Shown piece after piece: positions 33,382-58,098 of a DNA stretch of 64,000 bases. The stretch lies in assembly GCA_000092065.1 (NCBI GenBank), contig CP000601.1, one strand, 5' to 3'. The translations under genes and the position numbers were made by a program. This DNA comes from Ostreococcus lucimarinus. Taxonomy: Eukaryota. Every line of letters begins with the position of its first letter. Position 1 is the stretch's first letter. The notes under the pieces were generated by a model. That model was not told the DNA's origin and ran no database searches. It saw only the letters and a list, made by a program, of their open reading frames with translations.

Positions 33382-34587
33382 ATGACATCGCTTCGTTGCG
33401 TCGCGCGCGACGCCGCGTTCGCGCGATCGACGCGCGTGACGCGTCGATCGAGGCGCGCGGGAACGGTGCGCGCGATGTCGGACGGCATGGACGCGTTCAT
33501 GCCGCCGCACCGCGCGAATCAATCGTCATCGTCAACGACATCGTCTTCGACGGCGACGGCGACGATGACGAGCGGAAGCGAAGACCTGGATCCCGTCGTC
33601 GCGCGATCTCGCGAGGTGCTCGAGATGGCCACGGTCGGGGACTTGCTGCGCGTCACCGCGGAAGCGGCGGATGGGAGCGGACGCGATCGCGCGGATGAAG
33701 ACGAGACGCGAGACGCGCTGCGGTGGTTCGTCGTGAAGCGAGTGGGGATGAGCACGGGTGGACGACAGCTCGTCGAGGGTGAGTTAGAGGGGAAGAAGGC
33801 GCAGATATTGGATCAGGGCGGGGCGAATCAGGCGCGGATTGGGATCTCGGGAGCGTTGCTGGACGAGCGAACGCCGCTGACGAGGCTGAAAAACGTGCGA
33901 GACGCGGACAAGTTTAAACGCGCGATTAAGTCGTACGAGCGACGGGTCGAACGGGAAAGCGATGCTTTAACGCTGGTTTCGAGCGTGGATAAGGCGCTGA
34001 CGTTGAATGGGTTAGAACAAGCGGTGAAGAAGAACCCGCGCTTTTGGACGGAGGGCGACGGCGCGCACTCGAGGCGAGTCATCAAGGACCCCACGGAGAG
34101 CGCGACGAAGATGACGGGGGAACTCTTGGCGCTGAAACACGGTCACCGAGATGTGGTGTTGATGCAAATCGTGTGCGACTGGACGGATGCGCTCGAAGAT
34201 AGCGTTCGCGCCCCGTTCGCAGCGGCGACGCTTGAGGACATGTTGACGCAGGATGCGTCTATTTCAATGAGACTTTCAGAAGCGAGGTATCAAGTGGGAG
34301 AGGATAAAGATGGTAACCCCGAGTTCTCCAACGGCATCACAGCGGTAATTTATCGCGAGACCGCCAAGGAAACCGCGAACGTGCTCGTCTCCATGGGCGT
34401 TCAGGCGACGCGAAACATCGCAGGAGCGTTTCAGCAAGCCTTGGTCGGCGTCGCGCTCGGCTACACCGATGAAAATATCGCGCACCACATTCGCCGACTT
34501 CACAACGAAGACAAGTTGACGGATGAAGATATATTTGCTTTGATTATCACCGCGAGGGATGAAAAGGAAGCACTGAACGCAAAGTAG
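33382..34587 (+). CDS. Conserved-looking protein of unknown function (about 400 aa) with an organellar-type presequence.
   Basis: A non-repetitive ORF of normal composition (…VDKALTLNGLEQAVKKNPRFWTEGDGAHSRRVIKDPTESATKMTGELLALKHGHRDVVLMQIVCDW…). It is head-to-head with the DnaJ gene, about 40 bp apart. The start is either 33382 (MTSLRCVARDAAF) or 33475. Confidence 0.5.
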   Translation: MTSLRCVARDAAFARSTRVTRRSRRAGTVRAMSDGMDAFMPPHRANQSSSSTTSSSTATATMTSGSEDLDPVVARSREVLEMATVGDLLRVTAEAADGSGRDRADEDETRDALRWFVVKRVGMSTGGRQLVEGELEGKKAQILDQGGANQARIGISGALLDERTPLTRLKNVRDADKFKRAIKSYERRVERESDALTLVSSVDKALTLNGLEQAVKKNPRFWTEGDGAHSRRVIKDPTESATKMTGELLALKHGHRDVVLMQIVCDWTDALEDSVRAPFAAATLEDMLTQDASISMRLSEARYQVGEDKDGNPEFSNGITAVIYRETAKETANVLVSMGVQATRNIAGAFQQALVGVALGYTDENIAHHIRRLHNEDKLTDEDIFALIITARDEKEALNAK

Positions 34588-36662: not shown

Positions 36663-37736
36663 CTAAACTTGATGCATCGCCTTGACTTCGGTGAGAACAT
36701 TTCGCACTTTATCATCGGGCTCGTCTCTCAGCCCGGGAATCTCGCCGACGTCCGTTGAGGCGTCGCCCAAGAGCGCGCGGAAAGAATCCGCGACGCCTTC
36801 GCTCAAACCCACCAAATCATACCCGCCCTCTAATAAGAACACGATTTTCCCGCCGCACATCTCATTCGCCAGTTCTTTCAACTTTGTGCAAAGACGATGG
36901 TACGTTCCCGTGCGAAACGTCAACCCAGCGAGAGGATCTCGCCAGTGCGCGTCGTAGCCGGCACTGACGATGATGAAGTCGGGTTGGAACCGCGCCGCCG
37001 CCGGAACGACGATTTCTTCCAAAGCGCTCAACACCGCCTTATCACCGCTTCCCGGAGGCAAAGGTATATTAATAGTCGCACCCAGACCATCGCCTTCGCC
37101 CATATCCGTAATCTTCCCCGTCCCCGGATAGCTCCCGTCCTCGTGCGTGGAGATGAACAGCACGGAATCGTCGTCTCGGAAAATATCATTCGTACCGTTA
37201 CCGTGGTGCACGTCGTAATCGAAAATGAGCACTTTTTTATGCCCTCTAAGCTGCGCGTGTCTCGCCGCCGCCGCCGCGGTGCCGACCAAACAAAATCCCA
37301 TCGCCCCTCGCGGCACCGCGTGGTGTCCCGGTGGGCGTATCAAACCAAACGCGCTCGGCGCCTTTTCTTTCGTCTCCTTCGCGCGATCGATCACCTCATC
37401 CACCAATCGCGTCGCCGCACCGACGCCTAGCATCACGTCTTGAAAGCTCGACGGCGTGCAGTACGTCGGTGCGGTGTCTAAATTCGTCGGCGCTCGCGTG
37501 GCGCACAACAACTCGAGCCCGTTGCAGTAATTCTTCGCGTGCACACGCTCGAGCGCCTTTTTCGTCGCCGGCACGACGTCTGTGATCTCCAACACCTCAC
37601 CCGGTCTCGCGGCGGGGGTCAGAGCGCCCGCCTCGAGGGCGTCTAAGATGGCGGGCACGCGAGCGTTGCTCTCCGGGTGCCCCAACTGCACGTGCTCCAG
37701 CGCGGCGGAGGTGGCAAAGAGCAGCGACGGGGACGA

Positions 37737-37767
<31 letters not shown>

Positions 37768-37862
37768 ATTCGTCGCGCGCGAGACGGGTGACGCTCGGCG
37801 CGACGCGACGCGCGCGGTGACGCGGGCGCGACGCGAGTGAGATGGACGCGAGGACGCGCCAT
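36663..37862 (-). CDS. Class II (HDA14-like) histone deacetylase-family protein with an organellar presequence.
   Basis: The HDAC catalytic core GFCLVGTAAAAARHAQLRGHKKVLIFDYDVHHGNGTNDIF...ISTHEDGSYPGTGKITDMGEGDGLGATINIPLPPGSGD. The ATG is at 37862. Confidence 0.85.
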
Positions 37863-38209: not shown

Positions 38210-39004
38210 ATGTTCAACAAGGACTACGAAGTCTATCGAGACGAAGTGGGACCGAACAATCGCTGGCTGTTTCTGAATCGCGAAGGGAAGGGTTTCTTCG
38301 ACCCGACTGGGTACATTGACTTGGAAAACTACACGCGAATCGACCCGAACGATAAGAAGAAAGGGCAAGTGCTGTGGAAGTTGAAGTACAACGAAAAACC
38401 GCACTTTGATATGGGGATGTCGCTCGGAGCCGACTCGGAGGACGACGGCGACGATAACCCCAACGTTCGAACCGTGACGAACATGTTCAAGCAGATGATG
38501 CAACAGATGCAGATGGGAGAGAACAGGTTTTACTCTATGAAATGGCGCACGTTTTCCGAGGCCAAGTTGAAGTCGGTGAAGACCCCGGGCGGGGCGTACT
38601 CGGTGAAGATCAAAGCCAAAGGCTACTGCACGCGTCAAGTGTCGGTGCACTATACCAGAGACGAACAAGGACACCAACGTCGGAATGTGAACGTCACCGA
38701 CAAGGAGTACGTGACGAAGATTTCGTACAAGATCAAGACCGCCGATGGGACGACGATCGATCGATTCGATCTCTTCTGCTGCGAAGGCTCCGACTTGAAG
38801 TGGGAGTGCGCCGCCTTCACCGCCGAGCTCCGCGGCGGTTGGATTTCCAAGTACCCGCACGAGATCACGACCAAGCCCGGCATCGATCCCGGTTTCGCCT
38901 TGCTCTTCGCGCACGTTTGCGTCACTGAGTTTGCACCGGACGAGATCAAGAAGGACTTGAAGCCCAACTGGAATCAGTGCCCCGGATACATCAATCCGTA
39001 TTGA
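38210..39004 (+). CDS. Lysine-rich protein of unknown function (264 aa) in a locally lower-GC segment.
   Basis: A clean ATG-to-stop ORF whose composition (K, Y, N and F rich, much lower GC) differs sharply from the flanking genes. I recognise no domain. Confidence 0.5.
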   Translation: MFNKDYEVYRDEVGPNNRWLFLNREGKGFFDPTGYIDLENYTRIDPNDKKKGQVLWKLKYNEKPHFDMGMSLGADSEDDGDDNPNVRTVTNMFKQMMQQMQMGENRFYSMKWRTFSEAKLKSVKTPGGAYSVKIKAKGYCTRQVSVHYTRDEQGHQRRNVNVTDKEYVTKISYKIKTADGTTIDRFDLFCCEGSDLKWECAAFTAELRGGWISKYPHEITTKPGIDPGFALLFAHVCVTEFAPDEIKKDLKPNWNQCPGYINPY

Positions 39005-39276: not shown

Positions 39277-39798
39277 ATGGTGGCCGTCGGCGACCAATTC
39301 CCCGACGTCGTCGCGCAATCGCACGAGCCCTCCTGGCCGACGCCGGTGAAGATGCGCGCGCGTCTCGCCGGTAAAAAATCGCTCGTCGTCGGCCTGCCCG
39401 GCGCGTTCACGCCGACGTGATCGACGTGTCAGGTCCCGGGATACCTCGCGGGGCAGGACGCGCTGCGCGCGAGCGGGATCGATGAGGTGCTGGTGATGTG
39501 CGTGAACGACGCCGCCGTCATGGGGGCGTGGGCGATCGATCAAAAGATTCAAGGGTCAAACATTTCGTTCCTCGCGGATCCGAATTCGGTGATCACGAAG
39601 GCGCTGGACGTGGAGCTCGTCGCGCCCGGACCGTGCGCGAAGCTCGGACCGAAGCGATGCAAACGCTTCGCGATGTACGTCGACGATGGGGTGATCAAGG
39701 TGCTGAACGTGAGCGAAGCGCCGGACGATCCCGCGGGAGACGCGCGACCGGAGGCGTCGTGCATCGACAACATGTTGAAGGAAATCGCGGCGTTGTAG
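39277..39798 (+). CDS. PRX: Type II peroxiredoxin (Prx5-like) with an in-frame TGA at 39418..39420 in the peroxidatic-Cys position. Candidate selenocysteine-containing peroxiredoxin.
   Basis: Two same-frame track ORFs (39181..39420 and 39487..39798) are separated only by this TGA. Read through, the protein is ...KKSLVVGLPGAFTPT-U-STCQVPGYLAGQDALRASGIDEVLVMCVNDAAVMGAWA...RFAMYVDDGVIKVLNV..., which aligns residue for residue with Prx5/PrxII GVPGAFTPGCSKTHLPGF, and U falls on the peroxidatic Cys. Confidence 0.75.
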
Positions 39799-40370
39799 AC
39801 GCGCGCGATGACTTTGACGGGACGAAGACGACGAGGTTCAACGCGATGGTTGAGGATGTGCGCGTACGTACGTGACGCGACGCAGCGAAAGGGCTGATGT
39901 TATTGGCTCGCTGCGTCGTCGATGGAAACGAACGCGGCGTCCGACGCCGCCGTCGCCGGAACGCGACGTCGTCTTCTCGAGTTTACTTTATATACAGAAT
40001 AAGCGTCGTGCCGCGTCTCGCGACGCGCGGACAAAGGCGGCGTTAGGCGGAGTTTCGTCGATCGATCGTTTTGATTTCCGTTTCTTTCGTCCCCCGAACC
40101 TTTGTGAATACATTTACGCAACGACGAAGAAAAATAAAACCGCGGCGCTCGTCTTCTCGTCCTCCGCCAAACGAACGAACGAATGATGCGCTCTTAAAAT
40201 TTAAAAATTAAAAACGGTGATTAATTGCTATTGCTGCGCTGCGCGTGCGAGGAGATGGATACAGTGAATTGAAATTTGTTGTAATCGACGCGCCGGGCGT
40301 TTCAGCCGCCCCGACGGGCGTTTCAGCCGCCCCGACGCGAAATTCGAGGCGCGGGATTCGTCCGCGTCTC

Positions 40371-41564
40371 TTAACGGCAGTGTTCCGGGACGAAGCCCGC
40401 AGGCGGCTCGACGAAATTCTCCGGCAACTCGGTGTGACCGACGTGGAACGGATTGGCTTGTCGAATACCCATGGAAGACAGGGTGTGATTGACGTGGGAG
40501 TGCGACGCTTCGTCGGCGCGCACGGCGATGATTAAATCGCGCACCGTGGCGTCGTCGGGCATTCGCCAGTATTTAATCGCGAGCTTGGGCGCGGGCATCG
40601 TCGCCCATTCGCTCGCGGGACCGTCGCCGTCGATGTCGTGCAACGCGTGCGTGTACGTGCGCACGGCTTCCTCTTCAAGATACCCCACGAATCGATGGCA
40701 CGTTCGCGGAGAAATCAGATACGACAGAAAAAAGGCGTTGAAAAACACCCCTTGCGCGCCGAGGACGGCGAGTCGAAACATCAGCCCTGGTTCGCGAAGC
40801 TTCAGGAACGTCAGCAAGTGCATGCGTTCGTTTTCCGCTTCCTCGAGCAAGGTGTGAATCCAACCGTGATCGCGCTTGAGCGTGCGCAGAGACATCATGT
40901 GTCGCAGCATCGCGCCCACCATGCCGGGCACCCCCGCGACGGTTTCCAAAAAGATGAATCTCATCAACCATCCATCCGTGGTGAGCGATTTCTTCGGCGT
41001 GTACCCGGTGACTTTATCGAACGACCATCGCGAGAATTGCACCAACCCGTACGCCAAGTAATCGCGCACGTGTCTCGGCTGTCGATGCGCCGGTTTCACG
41101 TTTTCCACCTGTCGCAAGTCGTACTGCGGGTGAAACAGCATGTACGAGTCCGCGCTCCGCGCCATCGCGGCCGCTAATTTCGCGCTCGCCGCCTCGCTCG
41201 CCTCATCTCGCACCACCTCCGCCGCTCGCGCGCTCGCCTCGCTCGTCGACGACGCGAACGTCCGTCCCTTCCCCCCCCCCGTCGACGCCCCCGCGCGCGC
41301 ACCCTCCCTCGCGCGCGCGCCTCGCTCGCCCGCGCACCGTGCGCACGCGCACGCGCGCGTCCTCGGCGCTCCCATCGCGCGCGCTCCGACGCATCGCCAT
41401 TTCATTTCCGGTCCACGCGCCGCCGTCGTCGCGAATCGCGTCGCGCGCGCCGTCACCGCGCGATCCGTCGTCGTCGTCGTCGTCGTCGTCGTCATCGCCC
41501 ATCGCGCGTCGCGTCCTCGGTCGCGCGTCGCGCGTCGCGCGAGTTCCTCCCACGCGCGTCGCAT
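40371..41564 (-). CDS. AOX: Mitochondrial alternative oxidase (AOX).
   Basis: LETVAGVPGMVGAMLRHMMSLR...LEEAENERMHLLTFL...QGVFFNAFFLSYLISPRTCHRFVGYLEEEAVRTYT...RADEASHSHVNH carries the di-iron carboxylate E/H motifs of AOX. The N-terminus has a poly-Thr tract from (ACG)n. Confidence 0.9.
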   Translation of the reverse strand: MRRAWEELARRATRDRGRDARWAMTTTTTTTTTDRAVTARATRFATTAARGPEMKWRCVGARAMGAPRTRACACARCAGERGARAREGARAGASTGGGKGRTFASSTSEASARAAEVVRDEASEAASAKLAAAMARSADSYMLFHPQYDLRQVENVKPAHRQPRHVRDYLAYGLVQFSRWSFDKVTGYTPKKSLTTDGWLMRFIFLETVAGVPGMVGAMLRHMMSLRTLKRDHGWIHTLLEEAENERMHLLTFLKLREPGLMFRLAVLGAQGVFFNAFFLSYLISPRTCHRFVGYLEEEAVRTYTHALHDIDGDGPASEWATMPAPKLAIKYWRMPDDATVRDLIIAVRADEASHSHVNHTLSSMGIRQANPFHVGHTELPENFVEPPAGFVPEHCR

Positions 41565-54009: not shown

Positions 54010-54132
54010 GCGCGCGCGTCGTCAGTCTCGCGTCGAGCCCGGTCGATCGCGCCGCGACACGCGCCTTCGCGATGATTCCGCGCGCGCCGCATCGCGTCGA
54101 CGAAATCGCGCACCTCGAGCGCGCAGATGAAG

Positions 54133-54219
54133 CGTTCGAACGCGTTCGCGCGCGTCGGCGTCGCGTCGATCGATCGTTCGCACCCTTTGCGATCGCGCCG
54201 TCGCCTTCACGGCGCACGA
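54133..54219. repeat. Copy B of the 86-87 bp direct repeat, about 1009 bp from copy A, in the spacer between the ZnT9-like gene and the SPP gene.
   Basis: As for copy A. Confidence 0.65.
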
Positions 54220-54349
54220 CGTCGTCGTCGTCGCCGACGGCGCGCACGTCACGCTAAACATCGCTCGCCGCACGCGTCGTCGCGAAGTGCCGGCGCGCGG
54301 TCGCCGAGGGCGATTTCGTTTTTTCGCGAACCATCGCGCGTCGATCGAC

Positions 54350-54410
54350 GGACGTCGATCGATCGATCGATCGATCGAACGATCGACCGATCGATCGATC
54401 GATCGACCGC
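54350..54410. repeat. (GATC/CGAT)n-rich microsatellite in the promoter spacer.
   Basis: tcgatcgatcgatcgatcgaacgatcgaccgatcgatcgatcgatcgacc. It shows up as the SIDRSIDRS peptides in the track. Confidence 0.5.
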
Positions 54411-54597
54411 GCGCCAAGCCCCCTCGCGCCCGCGCGCGCGCCCGCCCAGGGTCCAGCGGTCCAGGGGCGGCGTCGAATCAATCGTCCGCCCTTCCGCAGT
54501 GCGCGGCGTGACCCCGGCGCCGGCGTCGCGCGCGCTTCGACGACGACGGTCCCGACGATCGGACGACCCGACGAACGCGCGCGCGCACGGCCGGATC

Positions 54598-57500
54598 GAC
54601 ATGGCGTCGCGCGTCTCCGCGAGCGGGCGCGCGAGCGCGAACGCGCGAGGAATCGTGACGCCGCATCGTCGGCGTGGACGGACGGCGACGACGACGAAAC
54701 GGGCGACGCGAGGGCGACGGTGCGCGCGCGTCGTGCGCGCGAACGCGTCGTCGACGAACGGTGGGCCGGGGCGATGGGATCGCGCGATGCAGACGCTGTC
54801 ATCCGTCGCCGATCCCGCGGCGACGACGGCGATGCTGGACGAGCCTTTGACGCCGCACGAAGAGATTCGTCGAGGAACGCTCGCGAATGGGTTGAAGTAC
54901 GTCATCTTACCGAACAAAGTTCCCGAGGGGAGATTTGAGGCGCACTTGGAGATGCACGTCGGGTCCGTGGACGAACGCGAAGACGAGCAAGGGCTGGCGC
55001 ACCTCGTCGAGCACGTCACGTTTTTGGGTTCTCGAAAACGAGATCAGTGGCTCGGGAGCGGTACGCGAGGGAACGCGTACACGGATTTCCACCACACCGT
55101 GTTCCACATCCACGCACCGACGACGAACAAGGATGGACATTACATGCCGCCCAACGTGCTGGACATTCTCTACGACGTCGCGTTTGCGCCGCAACTCTTG
55201 GACACTCGCGTGGCGAAGGAGAAGAAAGCCGTGCTCGCCGAGGCTCAAATGATGAACACGATCGAGTACAGAGTGGACTGTCAGCTTCTAGAGCATTTGC
55301 ACTGGGACAACCTCTTGGGCACGCGATTTCCGATCGGTAAGCTCGATCAGGTGGAAGCGTGGCCGGCGCAGGCGGTGCGAGACTTTCACGCGCGCTGGTA
55401 TTTCCCAGCCAACGCCACGCTCTACGTCGTGGGCGACTTCGATGCCTCCGTGGACGAAGTCGAGGGTATGATTTCCGCCGCGTTCGACGAAGCGGCGCCC
55501 GCGGAAGGCGCGGAAGAAGCCGAGTCTCCTCTCAAACGTCACGCGGTGCGTCCTCCGGTGAAGCACGCGTACGGGGCGCCGTCGTACGAGCTCGACGAAA
55601 TTCAACGCTCGAACGACGAGGCGAAGGCGTCGGGCAAAGACGACCCGTTCTTGCCTTTCGTCGCCCCCGAGGGTAAAGTGTCCATGTTCCAGCACGAACA
55701 CTTGTCCAACGCGAGTTTCAACATATTTTCAAAATTGGCCGTCAAGCCGCTCGAAAAGATGGGCGACTTGCACCGGACGATTTTGCAGCGCATTGTGTTG
55801 TTGGTGTTGCAGAGCCGCATTCAGGCGAGATACGCGGAAACTAATGCGGATTACAAACGCATTGAACTCGATCATAGCGACAGCGCGAGAGAGGGGTGTT
55901 GCGTCAGCACCGTCACCGTGACGTGCGAGCCGAGAGAGTACGAATTCGCCTTGCAAGTCGCCGTCGAGGAATCTCGACGATTGCAAAAGTTTGGATTGAC
56001 GCCGAGCGAGCTCGATCGTTTTAAGGCGGCGATGTTGAGAGATTCTGAACAGCTCGCGCAGCAGGCGGGATGCGTGCCGAGCCTCGAAAATCTCGACTTT
56101 GTCATGGAGCAGGACGCCTGCGGACACGTCGTCATGGACCAGGTCGCGGGTCACGAGGCCTTGGTGCGCATGTCTGATTACATCACGCTCGAGGCGTGCA
56201 ACGGCGCGTGCGATGAGCTTTTAGGTTTTATCGGTGAGTACGGCGTGGAGAACAATCGCAAACCGAACAGCGGTAAGTGCACCGCCATCGTCGCGTGCGT
56301 CCCAGCGACGATGACGAACGTCGACGGCGAGACGGTGCCGTTCGATATCACGCCCGAGCGCATAGAACAAGTTTTGGCGGCGGATTACGGTGAAATCACA
56401 GAGCCCGAGGATATCTTTGTGCCGGAGGTGTTGATTGCGGATGACGAAATCAACGCCCTCATCGAGCAAACGGCGCCGACGTTTACCGAGGCGACGTATC
56501 ACGAGCCGACCGGCGTGTACCAGCGCACGCTGAGTAACGGTATTCGCGTCAACTACAAGGTGCTCGACGCCGAGCCTGGGAGCGCGTTCTTACGACTCGT
56601 CGTCCCGGGTGGTCGTTCGGTTGAGAGCCCGAACATCGGGCCCGGCGGAATCGGTTCGTCGGCGGTCGGTTTGCGCACCGTGCAAGAGGCTGGCGACGTC
56701 GGCGAATGGTCGCGCAAGCAAATCGAGCTCTTGACGATGCAACACTTGCTCGTGTACGACGTCGAGCCCGAGGTCGAGTACATGTTTTTGGATTCCGCGT
56801 TCGCCACGGATGGAGGCTTGAGGACTATTCTCGAGATCATGCACCTCACGCTGACGAAGCCGACGTGGGACGAGCAAGCGCTCGAGCGCGTCAAGGACAT
56901 TTACCGCATGTTTCAGATTAACACGAACAAGAACATCGAGTTGCTCACGCATGACACCGTCAACGCCGTGATTTACGAAGACCGAAGAATCATGGACCCG
57001 AACAAGGAGGCACTCCAGGCGCTGACGCTGGATGGCGTTCGAGACATGATCGAAGCTCAATTCGCGAGCGGGGCTTTGGAACTCAACATCGTCGGCGACA
57101 TCATCCCCGAAGAAGTCGACGAAATGGTTCTCGCGTTTATGGGATCGATTCAGACCAAGCCCGCGCCGCCGTTGCCGCAAGTGCCCCCGCTGAAATTGAA
57201 AGAGGTGCCAAAGGATGATCCGGTGCGCGCGCAGCGGTTGTGGTTGAAGGACAGCGACGAAAGAGCGTGCGCGGTGGCCGCCGGACCGGGGCCATCCATG
57301 TGGGCGCCGATGACGAGTCTGTACTCTGAAATTCCGAGCTTTGTCAATCAAGACGCGTACACGCCGGAACAGATTGCAGCCTTGCGCGATCCCGTGAACG
57401 AGGTGGCGTCGGCGAAGGGGAACCCATTCGCACAGCAGTCTGCGCGACGCGCGAATTCTTTGGCGACGTATTGCGCGGGGATGATGCTCGCAGAAGTTAT

Positions 57501-58098
57501 CGGTGGTAGATTGTTCACAACGGTGCGCGACGCGTTGGGTCTGACGTACGACTGCAACTTTACAATGTCGTTTGGATTACAAAACAACGACGCGACGACG
57601 TACAGGTTGTTGGTGACGTCGACGCCGGAAAAAATTGATGAAGCTCTCAACGCCGGCGTGCGCGTGTTGCGTGGATTTCAGATGCAGCGCGTGAGCCAAC
57701 GCGAGGTCGATCGCGCGCGTTTAACGCTGTTGAGTCGTCATGAGATGGATTTGAAGACGAACAACTACTGGGCCGATTTGATGCAGTGCACCAACACTCC
57801 AGATTTAGCGCCGCTGAAGAAGATTCAGTGCGTCGCTGATTTACCCCTCATGTACGACGCGATGACCGTGGACGATCTTCAAGAAGTTTACGATCGTCTC
57901 GGCTTGAGCGAAGGCGAGATCTTCACCAGCGTGACGATCGCCGGGCAGACAGAGCCGCCTCCATTCCTGTCGAAGAAGGACGTCGACGCCGCCGCGCTCG
58001 CCGCCCAGACGCTGACCGCCGCGCTTGGTGGCATCAACATCGCCGAAGCGATCAAGAGATTGAAGAAAGAGCAGTCTCCGTCCGCGAGCGCGGAGTAG
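54598..58098 (+). CDS. SPP: Stromal processing peptidase (chloroplast transit-peptide peptidase; M16 insulinase/pitrilysin family).
   Basis: The inverted zinc motif in LANGLKYVILPNKVPEGRFEAHLEMHVGSVDEREDEQGLAHLVEHVTFLGSRKR, co-linear with plant SPP. A long four-domain M16 architecture of about 1170 aa. The R/S/T-rich presequence begins MASRVSASGRASANARG at 54598, and the track start at 54127 lies in spacer repeats. Confidence 0.85.
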   Translation, partial: DMASRVSASGRASANARGIVTPHRRRGRTATTTKRATRGRRCARVVRANASSTNGGPGRWDRAMQTLSSVADPAATTAMLDEPLTPHEEIRRGTLANGLKYVILPNKVPEGRFEAHLEMHVGSVDEREDEQGLAHLVEHVTFLGSRKRDQWLGSGTRGNAYTDFHHTVFHIHAPTTNKDGHYMPPNVLDILYDVAFAPQLLDTRVAKEKKAVLAEAQMMNTIEYRVDCQLLEHLHWDNLLGTRFPIGKLDQVEAWPAQAVRDFHARWYFPANATLYVVGDFDASVDEVEGMISAAFDEAAPAEGAEEAESPLKRHAVRPPVKHAYGAPSYELDEIQRSNDEAKASGKDDPFLPFVAPEGKVSMFQHEHLSNASFNIFSKLAVKPLEKMGDLHRTILQRIVLLVLQSRIQARYAETNADYKRIELDHSDSAREGCCVSTVTVTCEPREYEFALQVAVEESRRLQKFGLTPSELDRFKAAMLRDSEQLAQQAGCVPSLENLDFVMEQDACGHVVMDQVAGHEALVRMSDYITLEACNGACDELLGFIGEYGVENNRKPNSGKCTAIVACVPATMTNVDGETVPFDITPERIEQVLAADYGEITEPEDIFVPEVLIADDEINALIEQTAPTFTEATYHEPTGVYQRTLSNGIRVNYKVLDAEPGSAFLRLVVPGGRSVESPNIGPGGIGSSAVGLRTVQEAGDVGEWSRKQIELLTMQHLLVYDVEPEVEYMFLDSAFATDGGLRTILEIMHLTLTKPTWDEQALERVKDIYRMFQINTNKNIELLTHDTVNAVIYEDRRIMDPNKEALQALTLDGVRDMIEAQFASGALELNIVGDIIPEEVDEMVLAFMGSIQTKPAPPLPQVPPLKLKEVPKDDPVRAQRLWLKDSDERACAVAAGPGPSMWAPMTSLYSEIPSFVNQDAYTPEQIAALRDPVNEVASAKGNPFAQQSARRANSLATYCAGMMLAEVIGGRLFTTVRDALGLTYDCNFTMSFGLQNNDATTYRLLVTSTPEKIDEALNAGVRVLRGFQMQRVSQREVDRARLTLLSRHEMDLKTNNYWADLMQCTNTPDLAPLKKIQCVADLPLMYDAMTVDDLQEVYDRLGLSEGEIFTSVTIAGQTEPPPFLSKKDVDAAALAAQTLTAALGGINIAEAIKRLKKEQSPSASAE

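Follow-up and report, generated by a model that had tools for sequence, protein, structure and literature searches.

A 64,000-nucleotide stretch of the Ostreococcus lucimarinus genome (GenBank assembly GCA_000092065.1, contig CP000601.1; hereafter the window) holds what we regard with high confidence as the gene for a selenocysteine (Sec)-containing peroxiredoxin of the Prx5/type-II kind. Codon 48 of this gene is UGA, and a GUGA-type, form 2 selenocysteine insertion sequence (SECIS) in its 3' untranslated region (UTR) is predicted to recode it. A sequence-only reading of the same DNA had proposed a candidate selenocysteine peroxiredoxin. The proposal is supported: by sequence criteria, a conserved UGA at a cysteine position, selection on both of its flanks, a covarying SECIS in the 3' UTR and the existence of Cys homologues argue for a selenoprotein gene. 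The suspected marine picoalgal setting was also right, the source being O. lucimarinus CCE9901 or a strain nearly identical to it. The selenoprotein finding is correct, and at the level of the gene it has been known since 2007. The parts of the coding region are as follows.

39277–39798, plus strand: predicted Sec-peroxiredoxin coding region of 173 residues, closed by a TAG, Prx5/type-II (from the starts of orthologues and from matches in Pfam and the Protein Data Bank, PDB).
39418–39420, plus strand: UGA codon 48, predicted Sec at the peroxidatic position (T45-P-T-U48; from the alignment with human PRDX5, conservation in orthologues and the U printed in a published sequence).
39427–39429, plus strand: Cys51 (TGT) of U-x-x-C, candidate resolving residue, invariant in 80 related loci.
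39760–39762, plus strand: Cys162 (TGC), alternative candidate resolving residue (MAFFT alignment A3).
39796–39798, plus strand: TAG, the true stop codon.

A single reading frame is shared by the ATG at 39277, the TGA at 39418–39420 (codon 48) and the TAG at 39796–39798. Two same-frame open reading frames (ORFs) parted only by this TGA were what the sequence-only reading had described, and that is what we find. The read-through product, MVAVGDQF...GLPGAFTPT-U-STCQVPGY...KEIAAL, has 173 residues and matches the Pfam Redoxin family (PF08534) with an E-value of 6.5e-22 and 78.4 bits (cut-off 26.6). The 27 PDB sequences that it matches at E <= 1e-3 are all peroxiredoxins of the Prx5/type-II kind, the best being 3uma (E 8.7e-32); others are human PRDX5 (1h4o, E 1.8e-25), poplar PrxD (1tp9, E 3.1e-24) and 1nm3 (E 6.7e-19). 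The start, MVAVGD or MVNVGD, is common to the orthologues, and three of them (loci L001, L004 and L007) have in-frame stops ahead of it, though L006 has none. The enzyme is probably cytosolic, because its sequence lacks an N-terminal extension.

The TGA falls on the catalytic residue. In the alignment with human PRDX5, 'glpgaftptCstcqvpgyl' pairs with 'gvpgaftpgCskthlpgfv', which places the TGA on the peroxidatic Cys47, just as the sequence-only reading had claimed for a Prx5/PrxII product. The active-site motif P-x-x-x-T-x-x-C is matched as P41-G-A-F-T45-P-T-U48, with Sec in place of Cys, and PGAFTP is invariant in the peroxiredoxin protein alignment. Thr45 and Arg130 are conserved as the partners of Thr44 and Arg127 in human PRDX5; the R130 column, where 'CKRFAM' is aligned with the human 'LKRFSM', is invariant in MAFFT alignment A3.

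We retrieved orthologous loci via truncated database proteins and, using six search patterns, drew another 80 relatives from contigs of metagenomes. One of these patterns (STCQVPGY) favoured a Cys at position +3; none favoured TGA over a Cys codon. On whether relatives carry Cys or Sec at codon 48 the answer was uniform: the codon is TGA in 80/80 metagenome loci and in the four Ostreococcus-type lineages compared, and TGC or TGT in 0/80. The local reading is T-TGA-STCQVP in 79 of the metagenome loci and T-TGA-TTCQVP in the remaining one. The same codon is also TGA in L001–L007, L009 and L091. Moreover, the ratio of nonsynonymous to synonymous substitution rates (dN/dS) among the four lineages, at synonymous divergences (dS) of 0.5–1.0, is 0.13–0.31 for the 47 codons that precede the TGA and 0.15–0.28 for the 125 that follow it.

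Because the TGA is conserved and dN/dS is low on both flanks, we exclude a pseudogene, a two-ORF locus and a sequencing error. A pseudogene, in which a nonsense mutation had by chance struck the catalytic Cys codon, would account for the single in-frame TGA, and in public gene models this TGA does count as a stop, with just the 100–111 residues behind it retained. Yet the same codon is TGA in lineages well separated in dS and constrained on both sides, there are no other lesions, a covarying SECIS follows the gene, and the orthologue contigs (47–99% identity) are not copies of one sequence. The sequence-only reading had thought a pseudogene unlikely; TGA in every orthologue examined, purifying selection and the SECIS bear this out, and we consider it extremely unlikely.

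A TGA that is a genuine stop would leave a 47-residue peptide, a protein cut short at its N-terminus to 103 residues by initiation at an internal GTG (39487), or both. Gene callers do give such models (proteins P0002, P0166 and P0167, and in L002 a split into 47 and 111 residues). The truncated product, however, would lose the active site (Thr45 and residue 48) together with the first β-strands; codons 49–70, which separate the TGA from the internal start, are conserved in frame; the 47 upstream codons are under purifying selection, which makes sense only for a part of the Prx domain; and the SECIS is present. We hold this explanation to be very unlikely. An assembly or sequencing error that altered a true TGC or TGT would need a single-base difference, and nothing else speaks for it. 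Assemblies made independently from many samples all show TGA, among them six contigs of 99% identity (L011–L016), and we judge an error to be vanishingly improbable.

Homologues also bear on how the UGA is read. Of the 63 top homologues from the protein collection that bear the motif, 22 (P0006, P0008 and 20 others) have Cys at the peroxidatic position, as human PRDX5 does. Since Cys-type homologues exist, the family shows the Sec/Cys pairing that is typical of selenoproteins. In 37/63, the residue is Trp, as would be expected if UGA were reassigned or leaky and decoded as a standard amino acid such as Trp. However, in both contigs that we checked (L009 and L091) the W is a TGA, which suggests that gene callers had rendered TGA as Trp. 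The neighbouring conserved gene at 38210–39004 terminates in TGA, so this codon is not reassigned in the genome. Furthermore, an enzyme with Trp as its peroxidatic residue would be catalytically dead, and the conserved SECIS points to Sec. A standard amino acid at codon 48 therefore has next to no credibility in our view.

The second line of evidence is the SECIS itself, which has the following parts.

About 39856–39940, plus strand: SECIS element, form 2 (with an apical mini-stem), in the 3' UTR (minimum free energy fold, covariation, covariance model and pattern scan).
39856–39869 with 39928–39940, plus strand: helix I, followed by an internal loop.
39872–39875, plus strand: 5' side of the core, G-UGA, with an unpaired G ahead of the quartet (invariance in 11 orthologous SECIS).
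39877–39886, plus strand: 5' strand of helix II, paired with 39910–39919.
39887–39890, plus strand: unpaired GAAA containing the SECIS AA motif (10/11 orthologous SECIS).
39891–39909, plus strand: apical mini-stem (39891–39895 with 39905–39909) and apical loop (pairing and covariation).
39910–39919, plus strand: 3' strand of helix II (covariation).
39921–39923, plus strand: 3' side of the core, G-A-U (UCGAU invariant in 11/11 orthologous SECIS).

Counted from the GUGA at 39872, the element begins 73 nt past the TAG stop. The unconstrained minimum free energy fold (−38.2 kcal/mol) gives the SECIS architecture. Helix II has 10 bp in the consensus and 12 bp in the O. lucimarinus sequence, and the spacing from the core UGA to the AA is 11–13 nt, the exact figure turning on the choice of the two A's.

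Covariation supports this fold. We aligned six orthologous 3' UTR segments with MAFFT, and a second alignment held 11 SECIS sequences fitted to the model. Helix II is 100% paired in the six-sequence alignment, with 6/10 pairs changed on both sides, and 98–100% of its cells are paired across both alignments. The mini-stem is 93–98% paired, with changes on both sides in 2/5 (alignment A2) to 4/5 (A5) of its pairs. Overall, 91.7% of cells are paired in the six sequences, against 30–40% when the partners are slid by 1–3 columns, and the covariation score was reached by 0/500 column shuffles of that alignment. The 11-sequence alignment agrees with this result, being itself fitted to the model; taking both alignments, 90–92% of cells are paired, against 29–40% with slid partners. 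At the core, UGA-C-G and UCGAU are invariant in 11/11 orthologous SECIS; the base ahead of the UGA is G in nine and A in two, and the GAAA, present in 10/11, is AAAA in L035. A further MAFFT alignment that included the Bathycoccus SECIS (A1) was misaligned and was discarded, and Bathycoccus was treated separately.

The element also stands out in its surroundings. A strict SECIS pattern (R-UGA, helix II of >=10 pairs with <=1 mismatch, AA, GA) has one match on both strands of the window (128 kb scanned), which is this SECIS; dinucleotide shuffles give an expectation of 0.17 per window and ~0.0004 per 300 nt after a stop. A covariance model built from the orthologous SECIS (R1) gives it 77 bits (E 3.6e-18) and recovers no SECIS elsewhere in the 64-kb window. 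Two other R1 matches were rejected, one at 33422–33497 (E 0.33) that is without a GA core and one at 54337–54413 (27.5 bits), where a self-complementary (TCGA)n microsatellite was picked up. This microsatellite, (TCGA)13 at 54355–54406, lies within a long ORF at 54127–58098 on the plus strand. Outside the Ostreococcus-like clade R1 misses the SECIS, whether the relatives are Micromonas-like, Bathycoccus-like or more distant. A looser, fold-based scan gave candidate GTGA- or ATGA-type hairpins after the stops of distant TGA-bearing relatives.

The sequence-only reading had found no convincing SECIS by eye in the 3' UTR and had named tentative ATGA/GA candidates around 39806–39850. The element lies at 39856–39940 and is of the GUGA, not the AUGA, type. 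The 39806–39850 segment folds into a branched structure without a SECIS core and matches neither the covariance model nor the pattern. An ATGAC just past the stop is also present in L001 and L006. It is absent in L004, and for that reason we treat it as chance in GC-rich sequence.

This gene is not new. According to the survey by Lobanov et al. (2007, PMC2375036), O. tauri has 26 selenoproteins and O. lucimarinus 29, with one and three peroxiredoxins, respectively. The 'O.lucimarinus' peroxiredoxin row of its Additional file 2 reads SHEPSW.TPVKMRARLAGKKS.VVGLPGAFTPTUSTCQVPGYLAGQDALRAS, which, slips of machine reading aside, is residues 15–66 of the window protein; the 'O.tauri' row is locus L004. 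The published O. lucimarinus peroxiredoxin is thus the same gene, with no difference of substance. The same source reports that a G directly precedes the core in all but one SECIS of each Ostreococcus species, where most eukaryotic SECIS have an A, and that a long mini-stem is characteristic of Ostreococcus SECIS. The present element matches both features. The accessible text gives neither SECIS coordinates nor a drawing for this gene, and so the exact placement and the covariation come from the present analysis.

There is also evidence from O. tauri at the protein level. Labelling of this species with 75Se has been reported (PMC2375036). In a proteomic time series (PMC8834552), ostta09g00190, a 'Peroxiredoxin', is among 24 U-containing proteins, all of which were detected; judged by mean abundance, it ranks with the more plentiful selenoproteins in the readable rows. 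Because O. tauri has only one selenoprotein peroxiredoxin, ostta09g00190 is presumably the orthologue of the O. lucimarinus gene. More widely, PRX is among the most widespread selenoprotein families of algae (PMC7539508).

Several observations weigh against our assignment. The proteomic detection concerns the O. tauri orthologue and not the O. lucimarinus protein (PMC8834552). Within the 64-kb window there is no tRNA at all, and no tRNA-Sec or Sec machinery gene. Folded as a single sequence, the element has a weak z-score (−1.74). A conserved C·C mismatch (39876/39920) sits beside the core, where RNAalifold favours a Watson–Crick register that pairs UGAC with GUCG. Finally, the SECIS models of Rfam (release 15) have no match in 39700–40400 even at E <= 10, and the scan of this interval returned only chance matches (HDV-like and snoRNA-like).

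The last of these points lends itself to an explanation. The score lies below the gathering threshold of the Rfam SECIS family, which lowers the case for membership of the seed family and leaves the claim of SECIS function as it was. Rfam models and a search for ATGA missed the element because it is GUGA-type and form 2, and this suggests that the Rfam SECIS models have a sensitivity gap for prasinophyte SECIS of the GUGA type. As for the core, analogy with known SECIS would make G39874·A39922 and A39875·G39921 sheared pairs, with U39873·U39923 adjoining. This K-turn-like, sheared G·A geometry is taken from the SECIS paradigm and not from energy, because RNAalifold prefers the alternative register.

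How would the protein be made, and how would it work? For the O. lucimarinus enzyme we infer Sec insertion, peroxidase chemistry and a recycling route as follows. By the established eukaryotic pathway, the SECIS would recruit SBP2 and eEFSec·Sec-tRNA[Ser]Sec, and the ribosome would read UGA-48 as Sec. Sec48, framed by Thr45 and Arg130, would attack the peroxide and become a selenenic acid. This could be recycled by direct reduction with glutaredoxin (Grx) or glutathione (GSH), as in other Prx5-type enzymes, or through an internal selenenylsulfide with Cys51 (U-x-x-C) or Cys162.

The candidate partners differ in their distribution. Cys51 is invariant in 80/80 related loci, one search pattern having favoured STC, and is kept in relatives without Cys162 (P0013). 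Cys-type homologues do not have it, nor do most of the remaining Prx5 homologues with TGA, whose +3 residue is R, K or T; among the homologues sampled it occurs only with TGA and never with Cys at the peroxidatic position. In A3, Cys162 and the resolving Cys151 of human PRDX5 are at most one column apart. It is kept in orthologues of the Ostreococcus and Bathycoccus types and absent in P0013, P0006, P0008 and L091. The L091 locus (40–903; protein P0034) encodes a glutaredoxin–peroxiredoxin fusion with TGA at the peroxidatic position (USTRQ), and because this relative is such a fusion it supports glutaredoxin as the reductant of the subfamily. An ATGA-type SECIS-like hairpin lies ~90 nt past the stop of the fusion gene.

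We therefore leave the recycling route as a choice among three. Direct reduction by Grx or GSH is a tentative proposal to which we give somewhat less than an even chance. A Sec48–Cys51 selenenylsulfide intermediate is a possibility of much the same order, or a little lower, and recycling via Sec48–Cys162 seems unlikely. As the partner of Sec48, Cys162 or glutaredoxin/GSH is equally plausible to Cys51. We know of no description of an intrahelical Sec–Cys resolving mechanism for Prx5-type enzymes. That an intrahelical Sec48–Cys51 selenenylsulfide should serve as such a mechanism, specific to Mamiellophyceae-like picoalgae, is doubtful, and the lack of Cys51 in most other Sec-Prx5 proteins weighs against it.

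Comparison with characterized peroxiredoxins places the enzyme among its relatives. Human PRDX5 (1hd2/1h4o), an atypical 2-Cys Prx5, has in common with it the fold, the subfamily, PGAFTP-x-C, the catalytic Thr and Arg and a similar length. In the O. lucimarinus protein, however, Cys47 is replaced by Sec, there is an extra Cys at +3, an insertion of ~9 residues (EAPDDPAGDARPE) precedes the C-terminal Cys, and there is neither a mitochondrial nor a peroxisomal targeting sequence. Poplar PrxD (1tp9) and the Haemophilus influenzae Prx5–Grx hybrid HI0572 (1nm3) belong to the same subfamily and are glutaredoxin-dependent; both use Cys and not Sec, and the O. lucimarinus protein lacks the Grx domain. 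Its Cys75 lies in the segment preceding VND that we take to match the one holding the second Cys of poplar PrxD.

Sec peroxiredoxins are also found in bacteria. PrxU of Eubacterium acidaminophilum is one (Sohling et al. 2001, as cited in PMC7231847), and in marine bacteria the Sec-Prx motif is TxxU, a separate Prx-like family having UxxC (PMC1088965). The bacterial PrxU/TxxU proteins carry Sec at the peroxidatic position in T-x-x-U, as the O. lucimarinus protein is predicted to do. Their Prx subfamily is not the same (COG1225 for the Sargasso proteins), and their SECIS is inside the coding region just past the UGA and read by SelB, whereas that of O. lucimarinus is in the 3' UTR. The O. lucimarinus protein adds the Cys at +3, so that its active site is T-x-x-U-x-x-C, the TxxU of peroxiredoxins overlapping a thioredoxin-like UxxC. 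At the RNA level, Rfam SECIS families such as SECIS_1 share with the present element helix I, the internal loop, the UGA/GA core, helix II, the AA and the apical stem-loop; what sets the latter apart is that G stands in for A ahead of the core and that a C·C mismatch follows the core.

The gene lies between an HDAC gene and a hypothetical protein gene on one side and, on the other, a convergent alternative oxidase gene and one for a GOST/CAND6-7 membrane protein. In L001, from a related species, part of this order is preserved, namely HDAC, hypothetical protein, peroxiredoxin and a convergent gene. The HDAC ORF (36663–37862, minus strand, 399 residues) has an identical entry from O. lucimarinus CCE9901 (XP_001419469.1). 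The hypothetical protein, adjoining the peroxiredoxin upstream (38210–39004, plus strand, 264 residues), is conserved and has no Pfam match. It has an identical entry in the collection; the named O. lucimarinus entry of its 90% cluster, XP_001419679.1, is a longer model, of 298 residues. That cluster has 59 members, with hundreds of marine contigs, and the gene is syntenic in three other Ostreococcus-type lineages. The alternative oxidase ORF, as delimited, has no exact match in the protein collection. In the spacer between the convergent peroxiredoxin and alternative oxidase genes there is a perfect tandem duplication at 40294–40337, with 2.1 copies of the 21-nt unit CGGGCGTTTCAGCCGCCCCGA. 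The HDAC entry lists two accessions (ABO97762.1 and ABP01312.1), as does the 298-residue model (ABO97972.1 and ABP01222.1); the region may be present, or have been deposited, twice in the O. lucimarinus assembly.

Annotation of the peroxiredoxin is poor. Public collections hold only the truncated models of 100–111 residues (39487–39798), for example UniRef100_A0A7R9T063, a 'Glutaredoxin-dependent peroxiredoxin' of 100 aa. The Prasinoderma coloniale model PRCOL_00002341 is without the active-site segment GLPGAFTPT-x-STCQ, apparently spliced out around the TGA. In metatranscriptomes of marine eukaryotes, Sec-Prx5 seems to be very frequent and systematically mistranslated, with Trp for TGA. Two features of individual loci concern the T-TGA-STCQ exon: an intron lies immediately upstream of it in L057–L079, L087 and L090 (low-GC and apparently Bathycoccus-type), and L008, from an assembly of 0.83x coverage, has an apparent frameshift by it.

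What does this gene tell us? As a discovery it carries little weight, Sec peroxiredoxins of Ostreococcus having been published in 2007. The TxxUxxC motif is the small enzymological question that it leaves. Its practical value is in annotation: the SECIS coordinates and the covarying 11-sequence alignment could help to mend gene models in prasinophyte genomes and metagenomes.

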